Below the pieces are notes generated by a model. That model was not told the origin of the DNA. It did not search any database and saw nothing but the letters and a program-made list of their open reading frames with translations. From Mobula hypostoma (Eukaryota): 64,000 nucleotides of DNA. Every line of letters starts with the position of its first letter. The stretch's first letter is position 1. Below are positions 11,891 to 50,500 of this stretch, piece after piece. Both the position numbers and the translations under genes were made by a program. The stretch lies in assembly GCF_963921235.1 (NCBI RefSeq), contig NC_086097.1, positions 160,520,001 through 160,584,000 of the forward strand, given 5' to 3'.

Positions 11891-12417
11891 GATAGGAATA
11901 TCTCAAAATTTCTCCAACAATAATGAAGAAGCAGGTTGTATATCCACATTATAATGGTTAATGACCTGATGTGGATATTGGGAATTAATAAATTTCCCAT
12001 GAACTACCTACTGGTCCGTGCAGATACCAGGAAACTTTAATATGCATCAAACTGCCAGTAGGATTACTAGTCCTTCTGTAAGGACCTGGAATGTCCAGAA
12101 ATTAAACACTAGTTTTCTGAACACTGCTGTAAACAGCCCAAGAATAGAAGCACTGGAGCTGTAAAAGGAAACATTGTGACTTTTTAAATATCACTGGACA
12201 GAAATTTTTTTGAAAGTGTTGCTCTCTCAAAATTTTTTTGTGGTTAGGATAGACTGCTTGAAGACAACTTGTATCATGCAAGAATTTGGAGAAACAAGAA
12301 AATTACCTTTTAGTGAATATAAACAACAGGAATTCTGCAGATGCTGGAAATTCAAGCAACATACATCAAAGTTGCTGGTGAACGCAGCAGGCCAAGCAGC
12401 ATCTATAGGAAGAGGTG

Positions 12418-12455
12418 CAGTCGACGTTTCAGGCCGAGACCCTTCGTCAGGACTA
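12418..12455 (-). ncRNA. Minimal type I hammerhead ribozyme motif, core intact
   Basis: Minus strand UAGUC-CUGACGA-AGGGUCUCGGCCU-GAAA-CG-UC-GACUG: stem I, conserved core, stem II, palindromic ACGU helix III. Confidence 0.85.
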
Positions 12456-12830
12456 ACTGAAGGAAGAGTGAGTAAGGGATTTGAAAGCTGGAGGGGGAGG
12501 GGGAGATGCAAAATGATAGGAGAAGACAGGAGGGGGAGGGATAGAGCCGAGAGCTGGACAGGTGATAGGCAAAAGGGGATACGAGAGGATCATGGGACAG
12601 GAGGTCCGGGAAGAAAGACAAGGGGCGGGGGGTGACCCAGAGGATGGGCAAGAGGTATATTCAGAGGGACAGAGGGAGAAAAAGGAGAGTGAGAGAAAGA
12701 ATGTGTGCATAAAAATGAGTAACAGATGGGGTACGAGGGGGAGGTGGGGCATTAGCGGAAGTTAGAGAAGTCGATGTTCATGCCATCAGGTTGGAGGCTA
12801 CCCAGACGGAATATAAGGTGTTGTTCCTCC

Positions 12831-12960
12831 AACGTCGACTGCACCTCTTCCTACAGAAGTCCTGATGAAGGGTCTCGGCCTTCAACGTCGACTGCACCTC
12901 TTCCTACAGAGTCCTGACGAAGGGTCTCGGCCTGAAACGTCGACTGCACCTCTTCCTGCA
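12831..12960 (+). repeat. Tandem 52-53 bp HHR-containing unit, about 2.5 copies
   Basis: aacgtcgactgcacctcttcct starts at 12831, 12884 and 12936. Confidence 0.95.
12910..12945 (+). ncRNA. Hammerhead ribozyme motif, core intact
   Basis: AGUC(12910-13) CUGACGA(12914-20) AGGGUCUCGGCCU GAAA(12934-37) CGUC GACU. Confidence 0.85.
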
Positions 12961-13146
12961 GATGCTGCCTGGCCTGCTGCGTTCACCAGCAACTTTGATG
13001 TGTGTTGCTTGAATTTCCAGCATCTGCAGAATTCCTGTTGTTTCAGATTAGTTACAATCTTATTAAAATGGTGAACTGGGCTCAAGAGACCTCTGCTATT
13101 TCTTATGTTACTAATTATTTAGTCCACCCTTAAAAATACAAACCAG

Positions 13147-15652: not shown

Positions 15653-16878
15653 TGTCGTGGTCCGGTCCGTGTAGTTCACATACCGGTTCACGGTCCGATC
15701 CATCAATCCATATTCCAGGTTTTCATGTTTTCTCCATTTCTGTTGGGTGCTCTAATTGAGGCACATGATTCTTGTTTGGGCAGACACATACATACCTCCG
15801 GAGACCAGGTCTGCTGGATTGTTCCTGTCCAAACCCCCTGTCTGTATCCCTTCTCTGCCCCTTCCTCCTGAAGTCTTGCCCTGCAATCAGTGTCTGGAGC
15901 CTTGCCTTGCCTGCAACCTTTGCCTGCACTGCTGTCAAATTCAACTGCTGGAGCAAGATAAGGAACTGTCTATTGTTGTTTTGAACTGTCTCTGTGTCCA
16001 TGCCTTCACTAAGTAGGTCTGATTGTTTGCTGCTACCTAGTGTTGGGATTTGTCTCTGTGTCCACACCTTTGCTAGGTAGGTCTGGCTGTTTGCTGCTAC
16101 CTAGAGTTGGGAACCATCTCTGTGTCCATGCCTTTGCTAGGTAGGTCTGGCTGTTTGCCGCTACCTAGAGTGAAGAACTGTCTCAGTGTTCTGTGTACGA
16201 GTCCTGACCCTATGCCCTGCTCCCTAGGAAGGGTTCTGACTCTGTATAGCGCCCTGGCCCCAAGTCCTGTTCCCAAGGAGGGGTCCTGACTCTTGTGTTC
16301 CATGTCCCTGCACTCCTGTCGCCCCCCTCGACCAAGGCTCTGTGCTCCTGTCGCCCCCGCCGACCAAGGCTCTGCGTTCCTGTCGCGCCCCCCGCCGACC
16401 AAGGCTCTGCGTTCCTGTCGCGCCCCCCGCCGACCAAGGCTCTGCGTTCCTGTCGCGCCCCCCGCCGACCAAGGCTCTGCGTTCCTGTCGCGCCCCCCGC
16501 CGACCAAGGCTCTGCGTTCCTGTCGCGCCCCCCGCCGACCAAGGCTCTGCGCTCCTGTCGCGCCCCCCCGCCGACCAAGGCTCTGCGCTCCTGTCGCGCC
16601 CCCCCGCCGACCAAGGCTCTGCGCTCCTGTCGCGCCCCCCCGCCGACCAAGGCTCTGCGCTCCTGTCGCGCCCCCCCGCCGACCAAGGCTCTGCGCTCCT
16701 GTCGCGCCCCCCCGCCGACCAAGGCTCTGCGCTCCTGTCGCGCCCCCCGCCGACCAAGGCTCTGCGCTCCTGTCGCGCCCCCCGCCGACCAAGGCTCTGC
16801 GCTCCTGTCGCGCCCCCCGCCGACCAAGGCTCTGCGTTCCTGTCGCCTCCTCGACCAAGGCTCTGTGCTCCTGTCTCC
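15653..16878 (+). mobile_element. 3'-truncated LTR (tgtc..gtccggtccgtg family) with internal tandem arrays
   Basis: 5' end tgtcgtggtccggtccgtg matches the solo LTRs at 18186 and 40848; 64-bp unit x3 at ~15984-16183. Confidence 0.75.
16311..16875. repeat. GC/CpG-rich minisatellite, 35-36 bp unit, 16 copies
   Basis: Unit cgaccaaggctctgcg(t/c)tcctgtcgcgcccccc(c)gc; gaccaagg recurs 16 times from 16330 to 16853. Confidence 0.97.
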
Positions 16879-29245: not shown

Positions 29246-29890
29246 AAGAGCAGTAGCGGGACCCTTTTCTGAAAGTTTACAGGATACACAAGAGATTCTC
29301 TTCCAGGAGATTAGATGTAGTAATAATTCTACAAAGTGCAAGAGTAGGACTCTTTTCTGGCTGATTTCTCCATCGTGAGAACCATCATATATGAGGCAAC
29401 CTTTATGTTTCAGGAGTGTTTTGAAAGGACTAAATCGTGAATGTTCAAGGAGGCCAGCACACAAGGAGAAATCACAGACCTTGAGAATATGCCTCATTTG
29501 TTACCCGCTATCGTCATGGTCCTGTCTGGCAATTCCCCATCTTGCTATTACCTCCTTAATTGGGCCTTAATCCCCTCATCTGATTTCCAATCATTCCCAG
29601 TTCTACTAATTACAGAACACCTGGTTCCCATTAATAAACATAGGATAAAACTCGGGCAGCACAGTCATGCTTTGCCAGTTTGTTGGTTGACTCTAGTGTG
29701 AGTAAACCTAGTTTCCTGACTCCTTGGGACTGCCAAATCTAAGCTCCGCATCATTTCCTGGATACTCTATGTAAACCTTGTCTCTGTGTAAAGGCTCTCC
29801 TGGATACCGGTTCCCCGTTTGCGGCGGTACTAATGCCTCACGACTCTGCCTCCGCACTTGTGTCCTGCACTTAGGTTTGTCCTTGCAACA

Positions 29891-29906
29891 GAACGAACTG
29901 GCCAAG
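29891..29906 (+). promoter_or_regulatory. Self-priming PBS complementary to LTR segment 29670-29684
   Basis: gaacgaactggccaag can pair with ctttgccagtttgtt, about 25 nt downstream of the TATA-like gataaaa. Confidence 0.75.
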
Positions 29907-29907
29907 A

Positions 29908-30936
29908 ATGAACCCAGTGGACATGGACCCTGTGCAACAGGCCCTCGCCAGTCAAGGCTACCTACTGAGTGCCCAGGACCAACTGCTCAGAGAGGTCATG
30001 GAAAACCTTCGTGAGCTGTCCATTAATGTGAGGAAGGTCAGTGAGCAGGTTGACCGGGTATCCCCTTCCCTTACTCCATCCCTTCCAAGAACCCCGACTG
30101 ACCAAACCGCACAAGTTGGGATGGCTACGCCCCTTGGATTGGCAATACAATCCCCTCGAGAGCCGTACATACCTGAACTGGAACCCTATGCTGGGGACCT
30201 AAAGAAGTGCCGGGCCTTTGTATTACAATGCTCTTTGGTCTTTGAGAAACAGCCACGTACGTACACCTCGGACAGATCAAAGATTGCATACATCATGGGG
30301 CTGTTATGAGGGGTGCCTTGGCATGGGCCACCATGATCTGGGACAGCCAACCAGAGGTCTGTTCCTCCTTCCCCTCCTTCATCTCCGAAATGAGGAAGGT
30401 CTTTGAACAGCCCATTTGCGGTAAGGATGCCGCTAAGCACTTGCTAACTCTCTGTCAGGGTTCAAGAAGCGTAGTAAAATACTCCATTGAGTTCTGAACA
30501 TTAGTGGCCAACTCTGGGTGGAATGACGAGGCACAATGGGAAGTGTTCCAACAGGGCCTCTCAGATAAGATAAGAGATGAACTGGCAGCGAGGGATGACG
30601 CGGACAGCCGGGACTCTGATCTCTCTAGCCACCAGGCTCGATAATCAACTTCAAGAGCATTTGAGAGAAAAGACCAGTCGCCCCACTCCTCAGGTCAGCC
30701 CACGTCCCACCTTACCATCTTCAGCCAGCCTCCCTTCCCCAGCTGCTCCAAGTATAGCTCCTACTCCAACTGTCCCCACTACCCTTGGGGAGGAACTGAT
30801 GCAGCTGGGACAGAACCGTCTCTCTCCTGCCGAACAACTTTGGAGGCGGAGAGCTAGGGATTGTTATTATTGCAGCCAGCCGGAATATTTCCGGGATACA
30901 TGTCCTCTTCAGCCAAAGGGGAGGGCTCACCAGTAG
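29908..30936 (+). pseudogene. gag: gag of the sushi-like element (stops at ~30307 and ~30495, one frameshift)
   Basis: PELEPYAGDLKKCRAFVLQC, SKIAYIMGLL, L.QGSRSVVKYSIEF, EELMQLG, decayed knuckle CYYCSQPEYFRDTC. Confidence 0.92.
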
Positions 30937-33900
30937 AAAGGGGGACCCTGGTGAGCCAGACAACACTCCCTTCAGTCCCCCAGACCCGGAGGCAGATCCC
31001 GGCTACCGTGAACTATCAACAACAGTCCCTGTCCCTATCCGCCTTGGTGGATTCAGGTGCTGAGGGAAATCTGCTGGACGAGAACATAGCCTCCCGGGCC
31101 GGAATACCTCGGGAGCCGTTAAGTACCCCTCTGGAGGCCCGGGCACTGGATGGAAAACTGCTGGCTCGGGTTACCCACTGTACGCCACCCCTGACCTTGC
31201 TTCTGTCCGGAAACCATCGAGAGGAGGTACGATTTAATCTCATCCAATCTCCTCCAGCTCCTGTAGTTCTAGGATATCCCTGGCTGAACCACAACAACCC
31301 CTGCATCGACTGGTCTACCGGGAGGATAGCCAGTTGGAGCCAGTTTTGCCACGCCACCTGTCTGCAGTCTTTCCCTGCCTCCGCACCGCCTGTATTATTG
31401 CGCTATTGACCTTCTCCCTGGGGCCTCGTTACCCACTTATCTTTATAACTTATCCCGACTGGAGAGAGAGGCCATGGAGAAATGCATTCATGAGTCCCTC
31501 GCGGTGGGCATTATTCGACCTTCATCCTCCCCAGTGGGCGCTGGTTTCTTCTTTGTAGAGAAGAAGGATGGGTCACTTCGTCCCTGTATTGATTACAGAG
31601 GCCTAAACAATATAACAGTTAAAAATAAGTACCCACTACCCCACATTAACTCGGCATTTGAACCACTTCATGAAGCCACCATCTTCTCGAAGTTCGACCT
31701 TTGTAGCGCCTACCATCTAGTCAGGATGAGGGAGGGAGACGAGTGGAAGACTGCCTTTAATACACCCTTGGACCACTTCAAATACTTGGTCATGCCGTTT
31801 GGCCTCAACAATGTCTCTGCCATTTTTTAAGCCCTAATCAATGACGTACTGAGGGATTTTATTAATCACGTCATGTTAGTCTACTTAGATGATATCTTGA
31901 TATTTCCTAGCAGCCCCCAGAAACGCATTCACCATGTCCATCTAGTCCTCCAGAGACTGTGGGAGAACAAGTTACTTGTGAAGGCGGAGAAATGTGAGTT
32001 CCACGTCCCTTCAGTCAGCTTCCTAGGCTACATCATCGAGAGCGGGCAGGTGAGGGTAGACCATGAGAAGATCCGAGCAGTGGAAGAATGGCCCAGACCC
32101 GTGACCCGCAAGCAACTTCAGCGGTTTTGGGGGTTTGCAAACTTTTATCGCCGATTTATCAGGGATTACAGTCGGGTGGCGGTGCCCCTTCCCCGACTTA
32201 CCTCGCCTACCACACCTTTTTGTCAGGACTCTGAGGCTGATTCAGCATTCACTGACCGGAGGAGGCAGTTCACAACAACTCCCATCCTCGTCCAACCAGA
32301 CCCCTCCCGTCAATTCATTGTTGAGGTTGACGCCTCTGACTCCGGGGTAGAAGCAGTCCTGTCCCAACAATCAAGTCCGGTTGAAAAGCTTCATACCTGT
32401 GCCTTCTTTTCTCGCCGACTGTCCCCCGCCAAGCAGAATTACGACGTGGGGAATAGGGAACTACTGGCGGTCAAGCTAGCATTGGAGGAGTGAAGGCACT
32501 GGCTGGAGGGGGCGGAACACCCGTTTGTTGTGTGGACTGATCATAAGAACCTGGGATATATTCAGATCGTCAAACGTTTGAACTCCCGCCAGGCCTGTTG
32601 GGAATTATTTTTTGGACGGTTCAAGTTTTCCCTCACATACCATCCAGGGTCCAAAAATGGGAAGTCGGACATGCTCTTCTGCCAATACAACTCCAAGGAG
32701 GACACTTCCAGCCCAGAGACTATCTTCCCACCATCCTGTGTGGTGGCAACCCTCACTTGGGAGATTAAGTCCATAGTAAAGAAAGTCCAACGGGATGACC
32801 CTGACCCTGACAATGGACCCGTCGATCTCCTTTTCGTGCCTGATTCCGTCAGGTCTCAGGTTATCCAATGGGGACACACATCTCGGTTCGCCTGCCACCC
32901 TGGGAGTGATCAGACCCTGGCTGTCCTGAAAAAACACTTATTTGGTGGCCGTCCATGGAGATGGATACCCATTCCTATGTCTCTGCATGTTCTGTCTGTG
33001 CCCGTGGAAGAGTCTCCCATCGGCCACCTGCGGGATTACTTTGTCCCCTACTTGTCCCTGGTCGTCCTTTGCACATCACCCTAGATTTCGTCACCGGTCT
33101 ATCGCCTTCACACAGAAACACCACTGTACTCACCCGTGGTAGACCGGTTCTCCAAGACAGTGCACTTTGTAGCCCTCCCTAAACTCCATTCTGCTCAGGA
33201 AACCACAGACCTTCTCGTCCACCATGTCTTCCGCCTCCACAGAATCCCTGCGGACTTTGTCTCCGATTGAGGTCCCCAATTCATCTTGCAAGTATGGAAG
33301 GCCTTCTGTCAAGCCTCGGGTGCCTTGGTCAGCCTGTCATCCGGCTTCCACCCACAGACGAATGGGCAAATGGAACGGGTCAACCAGGACTTGGAGGCCA
33401 CGCTACATTGTATTACAACCAACAACCCGTCTACCTGGAGTGACCACCTCTCTGGTTAGTACTGCCATCGGAAGGTCTCGCTTTGAGTGCTCCCTTGGGT
33501 ACCAACCCCCGTTGTTTCCCACGCAAGAAGAGGAGATTGTGGTGCCATCTGTTCAGGCCCGTATCGATTGGTGCCACAAGGTTTGGGAGGACACACGCAA
33601 GGCCCTGCTCAGATCAGCCGATCACAATAGGAGGATTGCTGATCGACACCAGACTCCGCCTGAGTATTGACCTGGGCAGATGGTGTGGCTTTCATCCAAA
33701 GACATCTCTCTCAAAAGCTCGTCTAAGAAACTTGCCCCTTGCTTCCTGGGACCTTTCAAGGTCGAAAGTATCATCAGCCCCACAGCAGTCTGACTTAAAC
33801 TACCAAGATCTATGCACATCCACCTTACTTTTCATGTTTCCCAATTAAAAACACTTTCCGTCAGCCGCTTGTGTCCTCCAACCGAAACCCCTCCACCTGC

Positions 33901-34100
33901 CCGGATTATCGACAACCATCCGGCATACACCATCCGGCGGCTACTAGATGTGCACCATTGTGGCGGGGGCCTCCAATACCTGGTCAACTGGGAAGTGTAC
34001 AGCCCAGAGGAGCATTCCTGGGTTTCCCGCTCCTTCATCCTGGACCCCTCCCTCATCCAAGACTTCCATCGGGACCATTCAGACAAGCCTGGAGGCTCCT
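30900..34100 (+). pseudogene. pol: pol of the sushi-like element (PR-RT-RNaseH-IN-chromodomain), disrupted
   Basis: [84 protein letters not shown]...[16 protein letters not shown]. Confidence 0.95.
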
Positions 34101-36418
34101 GTTGTGGTGGGGGGGGGGGGGGGGCGGTATTATCATGGTCCTGTCTGGCAATTCCCCATCTTGCTATTACCTCCTTAAATGGCCTTAAGCCCCTTGGCTG
34201 ATTACCAGTCATTCCCAGTTCCACTAATTACAGCACACCTGGTTCCCATTAGCAAACACAGGATAAAACTCGGTTCCCTGGTTGTGGTGGTGCTAATGCC
34301 TCATGACTCTTCCTTTGTCCTGAGGCTTGTCCTTGCAACAGCTACATCTGTAAGTATAATTCCCTCACTCCTGACTTGAGCCTTGCAATGGTGGACAGTC
34401 TTTGGGGAGTTAGAAGTTGAGTTGATCATCACAGGAGTCCTAGCCTCACACCTAGTCTTATAGCTAAATTGCACATATGGCTAGTCTAGTTTGATTCAGT
34501 CAACTAAAAATGTAAATACACAGTGAAATGAAGAAAAGTACAAAAAAAGGTGCTAAATTTATCTTCTTACTTAAGGTCAGCCCCTGATTCTATAGAATAG
34601 GGCAGTGATAAATGTCCCAGCTATAGCTGGGTTAAAGCTGAGGGACTAGATGCTACCAATATTCCAACATTTAGCTCAGTAATTATAAAATGGTTCCTAA
34701 CTCAATGATAGAGGAAGGTCTGAGCAGCAGATCAGATGCTGAGCCTGCAACCCCCTTTTGCATACAAAACAATTAGAGGTCAGATTTCCATGGAACAGAT
34801 TGCTAATTGTCAATGTGATCCAGCCCAGAGTAATTGGAACAGTGGAATTTAGGAGCTGCTCTCATTACCTGCATGAGCATAATTGAAGAGAATATTTCTT
34901 CCATTAGTTGTCACTTCTGGTCCATATCTCACTTCTGTATTTGCTCTTTCCCCTAACTCTAAAAGCACATAAACCAGTCATTAAATAAAATCTATAATTA
35001 CTGGCATGTACCTTCACCCATCGCTAAAGTCAATGGGTGAGAATTCTCCGTGCAGGTGCAACCTGTCGCAGATTTATCACTAGGGAACTCTCGAACTTTG
35101 AACTGCACTGCTAGATTCCAATAAGAATCAAATGTCCTAGAAGTGTTTTCTAATCTAATGCTGCCAGAATGTTCAACACTTCTGAGCTCATGCACGCCTT
35201 AAAATCTTGAATTTCTTAACCCATGCACGTATAGGGACACTAACAATTATAAATGGAACACTTGGTCCATCCCAGCAAAACCTTGGACCTTTGTCCTTTT
35301 ACAATACAAAATGCAATGTCTTTTTTTTGCTGCAGATTCCTGCATCTACAATCTCCTGTGTCATCCATTTACTGTAGTTGTGTTTAAGGCTATTAAGGTT
35401 GTTTTAGCTATTACTTGGACATTTTTGGCTGCCAAACACTGGAAATAGTAAGCAGAATCAGAGCCAATCAGATAAAAATAATAATTAAGAAATATGAGAT
35501 CAAAGGGTTAACTGTCTTTCTCAAAGAACTCAATGCACTGCTGCAATGCATTTTCTAGATTCTCTTCTGTACCCTACAGTGATATCAACAGAGAGGGTGA
35601 AATTCCCCAAAAATTTAACAATTTCTCAAAAATTTTCCTGAAATAATTAGTGTTCAATTCTGATAAAAGGACATTAGTGATTATGATTTTGCCAATAACA
35701 AGGATTTTACCAGAAATGTTTAATCAAATACATACTTGTGGTTTGTAACAAGTTAGTCTTTGTCAATTAGGCATTTGCACAATAACCTAAGTGGCAACAG
35801 TTCAGATAATGGTGGAATGTCATTTGAAAGCTCTGGGCCATAATATAATTGCTTAATACAAGAGCTTAATCATAGCTTGCTGAGATACAATTTATAACAG
35901 CAATTTTTAAAGCTTCACTTATCTTAACCTCTCATTAATATTTGACATACTGTACATAGTTTCCCAGTGGTTTTATTTAGAGACATATTATCTATGTCAT
36001 TTTCTCATTGTGCCAGAGTTTAAAATACCTTTCAGTCCAAACTTTTATTTTCAGTAAGGAAAGGGCCATCAGTACTAAGAGGACTTTTGGAATCTGTTGC
36101 TGGTATCAAGTAACCTCTTGGTAGGATGCCTTAAGCCATGAAATCGCTGAAATATGTGCTCTCTACCACATGCAGAGCTGAACAGAATCTGACTCTGGCT
36201 CACTAGTGACACTCACCACCTAGAAGAGCAAAGAAAGCAGCTGCATAGGAATATCTTTACTTACATATTCCACTCTAAAACAATATAGTGACTTTGAAAT
36301 ATGTTGTCCGTCTTTAAAGTCATTGCATTTGAATCCTAGGATGTTGGTGCACTTTCAACAAATGGTTTGCAATGGTTCAAGATGGTAACTTCTCAAGTTA
36401 AAGAGATGAGCAATTGAA

Positions 36419-36597
36419 AATTCAAAGGCAACGGTCAAGTTTATTGTCACATGTACAAGAGGAATTCAAAGGCAACGGTCAAGTTTATTGTCACATGTAC
36501 AAGAGGAATTCAAAGGCAACGGTCAAGTTTATTGTCACATGTACAAGAGGAATTCAAAGGCAACGGTCAAGTTTATTGTCACATGTACAAGAGGAAT
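36419..36597. repeat. Perfect 44-bp tandem repeat, 4 copies
   Basis: aattcaaaggcaacggtcaagtttattgtcacatgtacaagagg at 36419, 36463, 36507 and 36551. Confidence 0.98.
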
Positions 36598-37389
36598 GCA
36601 AAATTTATTTGCGGCAGTTTCACAGCCATATAGCCCCATTTAATCAGCACTCACAAGAATACATAAATTAAACAAATTACAAACAATTTAACAAGAAAAC
36701 ACAATTAGAACAAAGAAAACAAGTCTATTTCAGTGCACGATGGTCTGTCAGTGGTTCCCACTGACTAAGGTTTTTGGGTTACTGCTCTAGTGTCTGCCAG
36801 ACAATATCCCCGGAGCTCCCCTCATCCTTTCCAGCCATTCTCAGGCCTCCATTGGTTGCGGTTGACCATGAACGGTTCATCCTAGCTGTCTATGTATCTG
36901 CACTTCAAAACCAGTCATGTCAGAGTGACTGGCATTAAAGTGCCACTAAACCACCTTTGCCCCCTCTGCCATCAGTAGAAATGGCTTCAGTGGGCTTAGT
37001 AGCTAAGCCACACGTGAAGGCCTGGAGCTGGACTTGGTTGGCAGAGGCTATTTGAGACACGCATCATTGGGAGCATTTAATGGGCAGTGGGAACTCATCA
37101 TTACTATCAGCAACTTCACCTGGTCCCTGCGCACGCGCACACAGACACACCAGCTAAGGCAACCTTAAGGAACATCCAGTTAATATATTTTAAAAAATCT
37201 TTTAATTTGAGTTCTGATGCACAGTGAAAGAAAATAAGAACTGCAAATTTGTGAAAAATAATTACAAAAATATTCAATCTATTTAAAGCCACAAATAAAA
37301 TGATTTATTTAATTACAGTAATAACAATTTTCATCAATAATTTTAGAGTGTAAATTAGGACAACTATTTCACCTTGCTTTTTCACCCTC

Positions 37390-42744: not shown

Positions 42745-45400
42745 GTATTTACGAAGGAAATGGATACGGAGGACCAGGCGATCAGACCTGAGTGTATAAA
42801 TATGTTAGGTCATTTAAAAGTCAAGGAGGAAGAAGTGCTGGGCCTCCTAGTGTGTATTAAGGTGGATAAGTCCCCAGGACCTGATGGGATTTACCCCAGG
42901 GTATTGAAGGAGGTAAGAGACGAGATTGCTGGGCCTATGACCAGTATCTTCGTGTCCTCTCTAGCCATAGGCGAGGTCTCAGAGGACTGACGAGTGGATA
43001 ATGTACCTCTAAGAATGGAACAAGGGAAAATCCTGGGAACTATAGACTGCGAGTCTCATATCTGTTGTAGGGAAATTGCTGGAGAAAATTATTAGGGATA
43101 GGATATATGAGCACTTGGAAAACTAGAGCCTAATTAGGGAAAACAAGCATGGCTTGCTGCATGGCAGGTTGTGCCATATCAACTTGATCCAGTTTTTTGA
43201 CAAGGTGATGAGAGAGAGATTGATGAGAGTAGGGCAGTGGATGTTTTCTACATGGATTTTAGTAAGACATTTCACAAAATCCCTCATCGGAGGCTAATTC
43301 AGAAGCTTAAGATGCATGGGGCAAATTGGCTGCTTGGATTCAGAACTGGCTTCCACATAGAAGACAGTAGTGGTTGAAGGGATTTGTCCAAGCTGGAGGT
43401 CTGTAATTAGTGGAGTTCCACAGTTCTTGGACCTCTGCAGTTAATGATGCATATAAATGACCAGGATGAAAGTGTAGATGGGTGAGTTGATAAATTTATG
43501 GATGATACCAAGATTGGTGGAGTTGTGGAAAGTGTAGAAGACTGGGAAAGAATACAGCATGATGCAGCTCAGTTGCAGATATGGGCTAAGAAATGGGAGA
43601 TGGAGTTTAACCCAGATAAATGTGAGATGTTGCACCTCAGTAGGGCAAATGCAAGGGCAAGATCTTTAATAGTGTTGGTGAGCAGAGAGATCTTCGGATC
43701 CAAGTTGCCACACAAAATGCTGGAGGAACTCAGCAGGCCAGGGAGTATCTATGGAAAAGAGTACAGTCAACAGTTCAGGCTGAGGTCCTTCATCAGGACT
43801 GGAGAAAAAGAGATAAGGAGTCAGAGTTAGGAGATGGGGGGTGGGGAGGGAGAAACACAGTTGATAGGCGAAACCGGGAGGGGTGAGGGGGGGAGGGATG
43901 AAGTAAAGGGCTCAGAAGTTCGTTGAGAGAAATACAGGGCTGCAGAAGGGGGAATCTAATAGGAGAGGACAGAAGGCCATGGAAGAAAGAAAAGGTGAAG
44001 GAGCACCAGAGGGAGGCAATGGGCAGGCAAGGAGTTAAGGTGGGATAGGGAAAGGGGGATAGGGAATGGTAATGGTGAAGGTGGGTGGGGGGCATTACTG
44101 GAAGTTCGAGAAATCGATGTTCATGCCATCAGGTTGGAGGCTTCCCAGATGGAATGTAAGGTGTTGCTCCTCCAACCTGAGTGTGGCCTCATCGTGACAG
44201 CAGAGGAGGCCATGGAGTGACATGTGGGAGTGGGAATGTGAAGTGGAATTCAAATGGATGGCCACTCGGAGATCCCACTTTTTAAACGGACAGAGCGTAG
44301 ATGCTCGGTGTAGCATACTCCTATGCTACATCAATGACTGCATTGGTGCTGCTTCCTGCACACATGCAAAGCTTGTTGACTTCATCAACTTTGCCTCCAA
44401 CTTCCACCCTGCCCTAAAATTTGCCTGGTCCATTTTTGACACCTCCCTCCCCTTTCTCAATCTCTCTGTCTCTATCTCTGAAGATAACTTATCTATTGAT
44501 GTCTATTATATACCCACTGACACTCACAGCTACCTGGACTATACCTCTTTCCACCCTATTACTGGTAAAAATGCCATCCCCTTCTCTTAATTCCTCCGTC
44601 TCTGCTGCATCTGCTCTCAGGATGAGGCTTTTCATTCCAGAATTAAGGAGATATCCTCCTCCTTCAAAGGAAAGGGCTTCCCTTCCTTCACCATCAATGC
44701 TACCCGCAACCTCATCTTTTCCATTTTGCGCTTGTCTGCCCTCACCTCATCCTCCCACCACCCCACCAGTGATAGGGTTCTTCTCGTCCTCAGCTACCAC
44801 CCTACCAGACTCCACATCCAACACATAATCCTCTGTAACTTCTGCCACATCCAATCCAAGTACATCTTTCTTTCCCTCTCTTTCCCCCCCCCAACTTTCT
44901 GCTTTGCACAGGGGTCACTCCCTACGTGAATCCCTTATCCATTCATCCCTCCTCACTGATCTCCCTCCTGGCACCTAACCTTGCAAGTGGAACAAGTGCT
45001 ACACCTGCCCCTACACTTTTGCCCTCACTACCATTCACAGCTCTAAACAGTCCTTCCAGATGAGGTGACACTTCAACTCTGAGTCTGTTGGGGTCATCTT
45101 TTGTATCCGATGCTCCATCCTGTGCATCGGTGAAAGTCGACATAGTTTGGGAGACCGTTGCACTGAGCACCTACAATTCGTCCACCAAAAAAAAGCAGGT
45201 TCAAGGGGGGATACCTGGAATACGCTGCCTGGTATGGCAGTAAAGGTAAATACATGAGAGGGTTTTAAGAGACTTTGGATAGGCATATGGATGTAAGGAA
45301 GATGAGGGGCATGAACAGGTGTAGGGAGGAGGGATTCATGTTTTGGTGTTTTTGATTTACTTTTTGGCTGGTTTGGCATAATGTAAGTTATATGTTCTAA
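42745..45400 (+). mobile_element. CR1 LINE (RT 42745-43705, 3' end 45203-45400) interrupted by a Penelope element
   Basis: KSPGPDGIYPRVLKEV; KFMDDTKIGG; MEFNPDKCEMLH. Confidence 0.88.
43709..45200. mobile_element. Penelope-like element with internal inversion (3' part on -, RT/GIY-YIG part on +)
   Basis: + strand: YINDCIG...FHPALKF...LPFLNLSV...YLDYTSFHP, GIY-YIG-like VGVIFCIRCS...IGES..LGDRCTEHL. - strand: LEEQHLTFHLGSLQPDGMNIDFSNF* and a decayed HHR at 43764-43801. Confidence 0.9.
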
Positions 45401-47569: not shown

Positions 47570-50500
47570 AATGGCCATTGTGTGTTATTCGTGCTAGATG
47601 TTGGGAGTCTTGGGAGACCCAGGGTCTCCCAGGAAACTATATCTGCATGAAGTGCATCCAGCTGCAGCTCCTTCAAGACCATCAGCTTGTATGGGAGTGT
47701 GAGGAGATCATCAGTCAGAGTTACAGGGAAGTAGTCACTCCTAAGATGCAGGAAGCGGGTAGCTGGGTGACCGTCAGGAGAAGGAAAGGGAAGGTGAATA
47801 GGCAGTTAGTGCAGAGCACTTCTGTGGCCATTCCCCTCAATAATAAGTATACTGCTTTGGATATTGTTGTGGCGGAAGACCTCCCGGGGAATGCCATGGA
47901 GACCAGGTTACTGGAACTGAGCATGGGTCTGTGGTACCAAAGAGAAAGAGGGAGAAGAGGGGAACAGTCGTGATAGGAGGCTCAATAGTTAGAGGAACAG
48001 GCAAAAGACTCTGTGGACGTGAATGGGACACCCAGATGGTATACTGCCTCCCAGATACGAGGGTCAGATATGCCTCAGATCATGTCCACAGCATTTTGGA
48101 GAGGGAGGGAGACCAACCACATGTCTTGGTACATATTGGTACCAATGACATGGGAAGGAAAAACAATGAGGTTCTGAACAGAGAATTTAAAGAGCTAGGC
48201 AGAAATCTGAGAAGCAGGACCTCCAGGGTAGTCACTTCTGGTTTGCTGCCTATGCCACTCGCCAAGTGAGGGTAGAAACAGGAAGATTTGGCAGATTAAT
48301 GTGCGGCTGAGAAGCTGGTGCAGGGGCAGGGCTTTGGGTTGTTGAATCATTGGGGCCTCTTCTGGGGGAGGTATGACCTGTACAAAAGGATTTGCACCTG
48401 AATCTGAGGGGAACAATGCTCTCACAGACAGGTTTGTTACAGCTGTCGGGGAGAGATTAAGCTAATTTGGCAGGGGGATGGGAACCGGAGTGAAAGGATT
48501 CAGAACAGGAGGGATGGTTTTGTTTTGAAAAAAGCAAAGGTAGCATGCAATCAGACTGTCAGGAAGGGCAGGCAGATGATAGGACAAAATTACATCCAGC
48601 AGGGTGAGTATCAGTGAATTAGGGATGCAGAATCATATAGGGTAGCAAAAACAATACTCAGTGTTACATCTCAATGCACAGTATATAAGGAATAAAGTGG
48701 ATGATCTTGGTGCACTTTTGCAGATTGTCAGGTTTGATGATGCCATCACTGAATTGTGGCTGAAGGATGGTTGTAGTTGGGAGCTGAAAGTTGCACATTG
48801 TACCGGAGGAATAGGAAGGTAGCCAGAGGGGGTGGCGTGGCACTACTGGCAAAGAATAGCATCAAATCAGTGGAAAGATGTGACATAGGATCAGAAGATA
48901 TTGAACCTATGTGGGTTGAGTTAAGAAACTGCAAGATGGAAGGACTCTGACGGCAGTTATATACAGGCCTCCGAACTGTAGCTGGGATGAGGACTACAGA
49001 TTACAATGGGAAAGAGAAAAGGCGTGTCTAAAGGGCAACGTTATGATGGTCATGCGAGATGTTAACATGAAGGTAGATTGAGAAAATTAGGTTGGTAATG
49101 CATCTTAAGAGAGTGAATTAGTTGAATGCCTACGAGATAGAATTTTAGAGCAGTTTGTCATTGAGCCTACTAGGGAATCAGCTAAATTGGGTGCTATGTA
49201 ATGAACTGGAGGCAATTAGGAAGCTTAAGGTAAAGCAACCCTTAGGAGACACTGATCATAACATAATTGAGTTCAACTTGAAATTTTATAGGGAGAAAGT
49301 AAAGTCTGATGTTGCAGTTTTACATTGGAATAAATGAAATTACAGTGGTATGAGAGAGGAGTTGGACAGGAGTTGGCAAAGTAAACTGGAAGGAGATGCT
49401 GGCAGGGATGACAGCAGAGCAGCAGTGGCTTGAGTTTCTGGGAAAAATGAGGAAGGTGCAGGACAGATATATTCCAAAAACAACAAAATACACAAATTGC
49501 AAAATAGTACAACCGTGACTGAAAAGGGAAGTCAAAACTAATGTAAAAGCAAAGGAGAGGGCATACAACAGAACAAAATTTGGCTTGGAATGTAGAGGAC
49601 AGGGAAGCTTTTAAAAATCTACAGAAAATAGCTAAAAGAATCATTAGGGAAAAAGATGAAATATGAAAGTAAACTATATCAAAATGGATAGAAAAAGGTT
49701 TTTCAAGTATATAAAAATAAGAGATGAGTGGATATAGGACCACTAAAAAAAGAGGCCAGAGAAATAATAACGGGGGACAAGAAGGAGGCAGATTAATACA
49801 TAGGTATTTTGCATCAGTCTTCACTGTGGATGACACTGGCAGTGTGCCTGATGCTGTAGTGTGTGAAGGAAGAGAAGTGGGTGCAGTTACTAATGCAAGG
49901 GGAGAAGGTGCTCAAAAAGCTGCAAGACCTCAAGGAACCCAAGTCACCCAGACCAGATGAACTGCATCCTAAGGTTCTGCAAAAGGTAGCAGTGGAGATT
50001 GTTGAGGTATTAATATTGATCTTTCAAGAATCATTGGACTCTGGCATGGTCCAGGCAGACTGGAAAATTGCAAATGTCCTTCCACTATTTAAGAAAGGAG
50101 GAAGGCAGCAGAAAGGAAATTATAAACGCAAATACAAGGAAATCTGCAGATGCTGGAAATTCAAGCAACACACACAAAAAATGCTGGTGAACGCAGCAGG
50201 CCAGGCAGCATCTATAGGAAGAAGTACAGTCAAAGTTTTGGGCCGAGACCCTTCCTTATAGATGCTGCCTGGTCTGCTGCATTCACCAGCATTTTTTGTG
50301 TGTTAAAAGGAAATTATAGACCAGTTAGCTTGACCTCAGTGGTTGGGAAGATGTTGGAGTCAATTATTAAGGATGAGGTTATAGAGTACTTGGTGACACA
50401 GGACAAGATAGGACAAAGTTAGCATGGTTTCCTCAAGGGAAAATCTTGCCTAATGAACCTTTTGGAATTCTTTGAGATTACAAGTAGGATAGGTAAAGTG

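Follow-up and report, generated by a model that had tools for sequence, protein, structure and literature searches.

In the dimer model for tandem minimal hammerhead ribozymes (HHRs), the core of one copy acts on the cleavage site of the other (Cervera and De la Pena 2014, PMC4209133); on dimeric hammerheads see also Forster et al. 1988 and Lunse et al. 2017, as cited in PMC6765202. Dimers of the minimal HHRs of Penelope-like elements (PLEs) are described as having low activity, and a single-motif dimer mimic was cleaved mostly at non-physiological Mg2+ (PMC4209133). The same source calls the G10.1-C11.1 pair highly conserved in minimal HHRs, and the literature consulted on this pair gives its conservation only and no rate for its loss. 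In the anole, a PLE hammerhead is reported to cleave only when the protein of the element is present (PMC11167929). PLE insertions have been described as carrying an inverted partner that is truncated at its 5' end (PMC8557442, PMC3846280). Tandem hammerhead repeats in animals are described as non-LTR retrozymes (Cervera and De la Pena 2020, PMC7229834). A preprint by Li, Clavereau and Pollet (2026, 10.64898/2026.07.22.740005) reports retrozyme families of 51–972 bp, including tandem units with a mean of 363 bp in one chondrichthyan, and derives retrozymes from PLE termini by local tandem amplification; one of its nine dimers was cleaved, and its definition of a retrozyme is two consecutive complete motifs. 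Tandem duplication has also been raised as a model applicable to the circular permutation of ribozymes (PMC10085705).

The locus analysed here, in a 64-kb stretch of Mobula hypostoma DNA (64,000 nt, the window), is probably a short tandem duplication that sits at the inversion junction of a single 5'-truncated PLE insertion; it likely formed by slippage and likely has no function. It resembles the dimer of PLE minimal type I HHRs in its short helix I, the unpaired base after A9 and the palindromic ACGU for helix III, and also in taking the site from the upstream copy and the core from the downstream copy. It differs in that the spacer is 16 nt and becomes hairpin loop 1, that the second half is dead, and that position 11.1 is U and not the conserved C. 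As in the PLE insertions with an inverted pseudo-LTR described in PMC8557442 and PMC3846280, a partial copy lies head-to-head by the 5' end and is joined through microhomology. Unlike the insertions in those reports, the locus has a 105-nt stutter at the junction and no visible target-site duplication or tail extension. Both of these are optional in PLEs, and neither was seen when the flanks were compared by eye.

The host insertion is a 5'-truncated PLE on the minus strand (12321..12833), recognised by translation, protein match and read depth. It consists of the last codons of a GIY-YIG endonuclease, the 3' untranslated part or pseudo-LTR, the hammerhead and the 3' end. The C-terminal codons and stop of the endonuclease frame are found at 12752..12833 (minus; translation and protein match), and 12850–12593 (minus) matches P0001, a Mobula hypostoma protein, at 85% over 86 codons. 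P0001 itself matches GIY-YIG with an E of 4.6e-4, under the Pfam cut-off. P0001 and P0008 match GIY-YIG and P0005 matches RVT_1, all under the Pfam cut-offs with E from 1e-4 to 8e-4, and P0002 has no Pfam domain match. Pfam returned no family for three raw frames of the window, and the identity of the element rests on homologues. Judged from these, it belongs with the EN+ PLEs, in which the endonuclease is in frame with the reverse transcriptase; this copy keeps the last codons only. It also carries a pseudo-LTR with a minimal hammerhead and an inverted 5'-truncated partner. All 11 homologues of the frame of a neighbouring relic come from Mobula or Hypanus.

Two other PLE remains in the window are inverted. 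An older relic at 43718–44900 is internally inverted: its endonuclease end lies on the minus strand and extends to about 44200, and its reverse-transcriptase end lies on the plus strand from 44198. At 50137–50304 another PLE end is inverted head-to-head, with the junction within helix II of the hammerhead, and it lies inside an older LINE-like frame.

The sense arm of the insertion contains the native minimal type I hammerhead (12419..12454, minus; core scan), with helix I, core, helix II, GAAA and the palindromic ACGU. The cut would fall 3' of C12423, and position 11.1 is U. The inverted 5'-truncated arm, a pseudo-LTR end, occupies 12910..13043 on the plus strand. It begins at the first base of helix I and carries the GUC site 12941, and its core is the sole complete one that the locus has on the plus strand. 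CUGANGA, GAAA, an NUH site, a palindrome at 15.2-16.2 and a helix I of 4-5 bp are found at both 12910–12945 and 12454–12419. Together with the PLE endonuclease end and the inverted partner, these motifs bear out the identification as a PLE minimal hammerhead that the sequence-only reading had made from the letters. The arms terminate at an identical base and differ by 4 substitutions in 134 nt. The G10.1-C11.1 pair is absent in both; with U at 11.1 there is a G.U, or an A-U without the bulge. Position 11.1 is C in 4 of the 9 relics listed, and CpG decay is the likely reason for the loss of the pair. The native single motif (12419–12454 minus; 12910–12945) is predicted to fold into one self-locked hairpin, in which GACG of the core pairs with CGUC of the cut site.

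At the inversion junction, the minus-strand PLE end (12321–12833) joins an inverted copy of its own terminus head-to-head through a 3-nt microhomology (12831..12833, plus). The family sequence diverges behind 12833; its normal continuation appears as loose ends in all four runs and is also seen in the relic at 44089–44176. The first 105 nt of the arm are two additional rounds of a 52-nt stretch around the hammerhead. Tandem Repeats Finder, run on the 64-kb window, reports this repeat at 12826–12962 with a period of 52, 2.6 copies, 91% matches and a score of 232. Unit 1 (12826..12878, plus, 53 nt) holds the junction, the GUC site 12836, the 3' flank of the ribozyme, a helix I strand, CUGAUGA and helix II. 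Unit 2 (12879..12930, plus, 52 nt) holds a dead UCAA, the GUC site 12889, helix I with a 16-nt loop, an intact CUGACGA and helix II. The two units differ at three places: C/T at 12829/12882, one additional A, and T/C at 12866/12918. The GUC triplets end at 12836, 12889 and 12941, the upstream core has UCAA instead of GAAA at 12882–12885, and the downstream core has CUGACGA at 12914–12920 and GAAA at 12934–12937. A 52-53 bp tandem duplication with a dead upstream core had been proposed from the sequence, and the repeat itself, the GUC sites, helices, loop and cores were all found to be placed correctly.

Tandem-repeat and core scans found no second copy of the duplication in the 64-kb window. 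A GC-rich 35-bp minisatellite lies at 16308–16875 (16.4 copies, 95% matches) with several frames open, and a young 44-bp tandem repeat lies at 36419–36602 (4.2 copies, 99% matches). The broken frames at 29875–34200 read like gag, protease, reverse transcriptase, RNase H and integrase of what we take to be a Gypsy-type LTR retrotransposon. A promoter scan of the bacterial type was set aside.

The UCAA of unit 2 is one change away from the junction sequence and two from GAAA. As its sequence is nearer to that of the junction, the best reading is that unit 2 reproduces unit 1 together with the junction, and the UCAA would then likely be a junction copy with one C-to-T change. It follows that the upstream core was likely dead from birth. 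A three-step history, with a slip order reconstructed from this one locus, may account for the structure. During integration, DNA synthesis would have changed template to the terminus of the element itself, at a point 5 nt upstream of the cut site. After 26-27 nt it would have slipped and restarted at the first base of helix I, with the help of an imperfect direct repeat of 12 nt that flanks the ribozyme; many family copies are truncated at this spot. A second slip, between two CCT triplets, would have recopied the junction and the ribozyme, placing the junction CC (now UC) where GA had stood and so killing the upstream core. The outcome would be an intact core preceded, at a distance of 16 nt, by a spare GUC site and helix I strand, that is, half of a classic double hammerhead in cis. 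The candidate slip site is a 12-nt stretch just 5' of the ribozyme (12457..12468, minus), 11/12 identical to the sequence that follows the ribozyme on its 3' side in the form found in the repeat units (12898–12909); its partner in the sense arm lies 54 nt away at 12403–12414 (minus). Of the 1,285 joints listed, 15 are shown, and 11 of these 15 depart from the antisense arm at 12449–12464, which is the 5' edge of the ribozyme. Their landing points at 12908–12919 (13 of the 15 shown, 1,285 listed) were not used, because the reference arm starts there. The 12-nt direct repeat flanking the hammerhead in this PLE subfamily could favour events that duplicate or delete the entire ribozyme. The duplication sits at the inversion junction, and slippage during PLE insertion, as suggested by the sequence-only reading, is its likely origin.

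Head-to-tail repeats could also arise as cDNA, by rolling reverse transcription of a 52-nt RNA circle. The 2.6 head-to-tail copies would suit such a template, and circles are a proposed intermediate of PLEs and retrozymes (PMC4209133, PMC7229834). A circle made by the ribozyme would close at the cut site, however, and the repeat joint 12909/12910 is 20 nt from it, which makes such a circle an unlikely source. GAAA would moreover be expected in every round, whereas unit 2 has the junction-like UCAA. We therefore consider this origin extremely improbable.

Slippage within a single integration must also be weighed against two separate events, in which the minus-strand copy was inserted first and the stuttered plus-strand arm is a later insertion of a sister copy that replaced target DNA. 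The contigs of organism B (run X5) bear on this history. A contig from the left flank reaches 29 nt into the element, and the left junction is common to both organisms. The right-flank contig matches 13045–13211 and then continues with 563 letters unlike the window left of 13045. These unfitting letters and the lack of a visible target-site duplication would agree with two events, and they indicate that the history may be more complex than one integration. The 563 letters may be either a later insertion in B or the trace of a two-step history at the window locus. Against two events, the arms end on the identical base and share subfamily letters, and head-to-head inversions are described as typical of single PLE integrations (PMC8557442, PMC3846280). 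The difference between the arms, 4/134, is also about that between the flanks of A and B, and fits an insertion that predates the A/B split followed by a later insertion in B. Two events are thus unlikely in our judgement; if they did occur, the history would change and the verdict of an inert locus would stand.

The duplication is seen in raw reads. A 105-nt contig of run X1 spans 12831–12934 with one letter different, at a depth of 20.8, and the four flank contigs of the same run have depths of 14.1-19.2. All 74 of the 31-mers of 12831–12934 are missing from the native arm. The contig has more than 31 letters on either side of the middle joint (12882/83) and fewer at the two outer joints. 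These data, a contig at flank depth and 31-mers absent from the native arm, indicate that the duplication is real in the raw reads and behaves as one locus. An assembly artefact might be suspected, since the repeat lies inside an inverted repeat and X1 is possibly the sample behind the window's own assembly. The raw-read contig carries 104 letters in one piece at flank depth, however, and the units differ at three places, and we give an artefact hardly any credence. The left-flank contig of X1 ends at 12296, 24 nt short of the start of the element, possibly at a heterozygous site or a short repeat.

Contig depth is not copy number (a caveat of the tool) and is informative for near-identical copies only. 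The summed contig depth of the Penelope-like family is 10^6-10^7 over most of 12321–12833, compared with about 20 in the flanks; the summed depth across the bin of the junction was left out as a measure of copy number. The exact junction was found at flank depth in one DNA run (X1). Among the eight contigs listed for run X5 (organism B), none spans the duplication. Among the eight listed for each of runs X11 and X12, which we guess to be RNA, none lies over 12831–12934, and the unique flanks are nearly bare; this result was given no weight in either direction. The contig depths of X1 bear on the idea of a family of hammerhead repeats of about 52-54 nt, dispersed or in arrays, in which the locus would be one diverged member. 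Such repeats would be created repeatedly at the built-in direct repeat, and some of them would have two live cores. The 12-nt direct repeat with its 54-nt spacing belongs to the element and not to the locus, the PLE family is hugely amplified, and tandem units are reported from one chondrichthyan (mean 363 bp) and from 51 bp upward overall (10.64898/2026.07.22.740005). Yet the exact junction contig is at flank depth, the window has no other copy, and the unit starts with the locus's own inversion-junction sequence. The argument from depth holds for near-identical copies, as against diverged or independent duplications elsewhere in the genome. Membership in such a family is quite improbable in our judgement, and a duplication private to this insertion is preferred.

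As base-pair geometry, the duplicated sequence allows a fold in cis at 12885..12940 (plus), in the order site-core-GAAA. Helix III is formed by ACGU 12885–12888 with ACGU 12937–12940 and helix I by GACU 12890–12893 with AGUC 12910–12913, all pairs being Watson-Crick, and the loop of helix I is 12894–12909 (16 nt). Helix III can be extended by 2 pairs past an A.C mismatch. The core positions of the fold are all intact (C3-A9, G12-A14, A15.1-U16.1 and C17). The fold corresponds exactly to one of the two hammerheads in the known dimer, but with a spacer of only 16 nt. When head-to-tail duplications of the native arm were simulated, 538 of 544 allowed this fold by construction. Almost any head-to-tail duplication thus gives the cis fold by geometry, and its presence is no sign of selection. 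As a single sequence with no known family, the cis fold offers no covariation, and no complementarity of the 16-nt loop with loop 2 is obvious by eye.

The sequence-only reading had called the fold type III-like, which holds for the order of the blocks. Site, core and GAAA follow one another as in type III (SCG, RF00008), and loops close helices I and II as they do in that class, which includes the motifs of plant LTR retrozymes, viroids and phage-associated motifs, and the open helix III is shared as well (PMC10085705). The likeness does not extend to the structure expected of the RNA. The locus has a helix I of 4 bp with a 16-nt loop, compared with 5-8 bp and 3-7-nt loops in 20 controls; it lacks an Rfam match and a known family, the fold is not the predicted ground state, and in the folding model a three-way junction is not favoured. 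Rfam gave no match at the gathering score in the 64-kb window and, at E up to 10, no hammerhead in 12300–13100, where three weak matches were unrelated.

The cis fold, although correctly drawn, is predicted to be unpopulated. When constrained to the active fold, the RNA is 9.3-11.9 kcal/mol above its ensemble in ViennaRNA (4 spans, 2 helix II registers). Twenty natural type III-compatible sequences gave 0.32-2.92 kcal/mol, with a median of 0.9; these are the distinct sequences among 121 viral-contig loci allowing helices I and III of at least 4 bp in type III order, and their choice (helices of at least 4 bp, fixed helix II pattern) favours low values. The Rfam Hammerhead_3 model was passed by 3 of the 20. 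Among 200 shuffles of the loop, 73 folded as well as the locus or better, as did 121 of the 538 simulated duplications; none of them came below 3 kcal/mol, and by this model the cis fold carries no sign of tuning. The main competitor is a pairing of two GUCGAC palindromes with each other, at a probability of 0.85 in 12880–12946. Placing C at position 11.1 lowers the gap from 10.2 to 7.9 kcal/mol. A plus-strand transcript from upstream would meet the antisense arm first; the mean probability of pairing between core and antisense is 0.79-1.0, and the gap is 47 kcal/mol. For transcripts starting at 12470 the gap is 16-23 kcal/mol. RNA of the locus would thus mostly misfold, and in a read-through transcript the core would pair with the antisense arm.

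These energies must be read with the native element in mind. The native double hammerhead of the PLE family folds likewise poorly (-8.3 kcal/mol, compared with -23.4 kcal/mol for two monomers). Because the native form is also far uphill, and because the anole hammerhead is reported to need the protein of its element, folding energy is no proof of inactivity. At most, a short transcript made in vitro would be cleaved slowly when Mg2+ is high; from the model such weak cleavage is plausible, if not the outcome we expect, and a role of the cis fold in the cell is not likely.

The sequence-only reading had also proposed that the permuted ribozyme would release unit RNAs of about 52 nt. For the live core acting in cis on C12889 or C12836, the predicted cost is about 13 kcal/mol for either site (12826–12946). 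Cuts at both C12836 and C12889 would free 12837–12889, a unit whose core is dead. Release of the live-core unit, 12890–12941, requires a cut at 12941, and this is possible only by a second molecule. The locus alone therefore cannot make a self-renewing 52-nt RNA, since the only unit releasable in cis has a dead core, and that part of the proposal is not supported.

In its strongest form, the proposal is that the locus is a working monomeric type III-like ribozyme, which cleaves in the cell and whose 52-nt unit RNAs seed retrozyme-like arrays. All the helices and core nucleotides are present, helix III may gain 2 pairs, and the tether in cis makes a partner unnecessary. PLE minimal HHRs are reported to be partly active as dimers or with an engineered helix III (PMC4209133), and tandem hammerhead families down to 51 bp are reported to exist (10.64898/2026.07.22.740005). 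The active fold, however, is 9.3-11.9 kcal/mol uphill, or 47 with the antisense arm, and the G10.1-C11.1 pair is lost. The depth is that of a single copy, the releasable unit carries the dead core, and the live-core unit depends on a partner in trans. The two units already differ from each other at 3 of 53 positions and show no trace of homogenisation. A monomeric ribozyme at work in the cell is thus very improbable. The related view of the locus as an undescribed self-contained system is not supported, as the locus is half of a known double hammerhead with a disfavoured fold, an antisense block and single-copy depth. We conclude that the stutter is real and that it is likely an inert scar, left by slippage in a single decayed PLE insertion, rather than a new ribozyme system.

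The sequence-only reading saw in the duplication a plausible route from a PLE to retrozyme-like or HHR-satellite repeats. The route from PLE termini to tandem hammerhead repeats is already given in the preprint 10.64898/2026.07.22.740005, with units down to 51 bp. Like the non-LTR retrozymes reported there, the locus is a head-to-tail repeat from a PLE terminus with hammerhead sequence in each unit, and its length is at the lower edge of the 51–972 bp range. It differs from them in having one complete core, at one locus that is still inside the parent insertion, and in being known from DNA sequence. By the two-motif definition, and as judged from its letters, it is not a retrozyme. The exact type of locus was not found described in the hammerhead literature consulted, and the families of the preprint may include a 51-54-bp unit of such a build. 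A pattern of cut site, short spacer and core gave no loci in viral contigs and 17 loci in metagenomes, none of the 17 with helix II and GAAA after the core; both are weak blanks, as these collections are not expected to contain ray DNA. Fifteen of the 17 metagenome loci represent a single conserved GC-rich stretch; for L004, no match to the window had an E below 0.27. The fifteen (L001-L003, L005-L014, L016 and L017, at about 701–738) are a chance match to the pattern and look coding, with a lysine/alanine-rich tail at the end.

Our study indicates that the significance of the locus itself is small, as it is one decayed junction in a family with a huge copy number. It is a natural example of how a single duplication turns the type I block order into the type III order, and an example of the first step required by the PLE-to-retrozyme model. 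With its 12-nt direct repeat and its truncation at the edge of helix I, the ray PLE family might repeatedly spawn duplications of 52-54 nt, each turning a type I into a one-strand type III hammerhead. Some two-core copies would then cleave, perhaps with the protein of the element, and seed ultra-short arrays, the present locus being a damaged example; we regard this as distinctly improbable. If such duplications do recur with live cores, and if one of them cleaves as a monomer, they would provide a route for hammerhead permutations and for the birth of retrozyme arrays.
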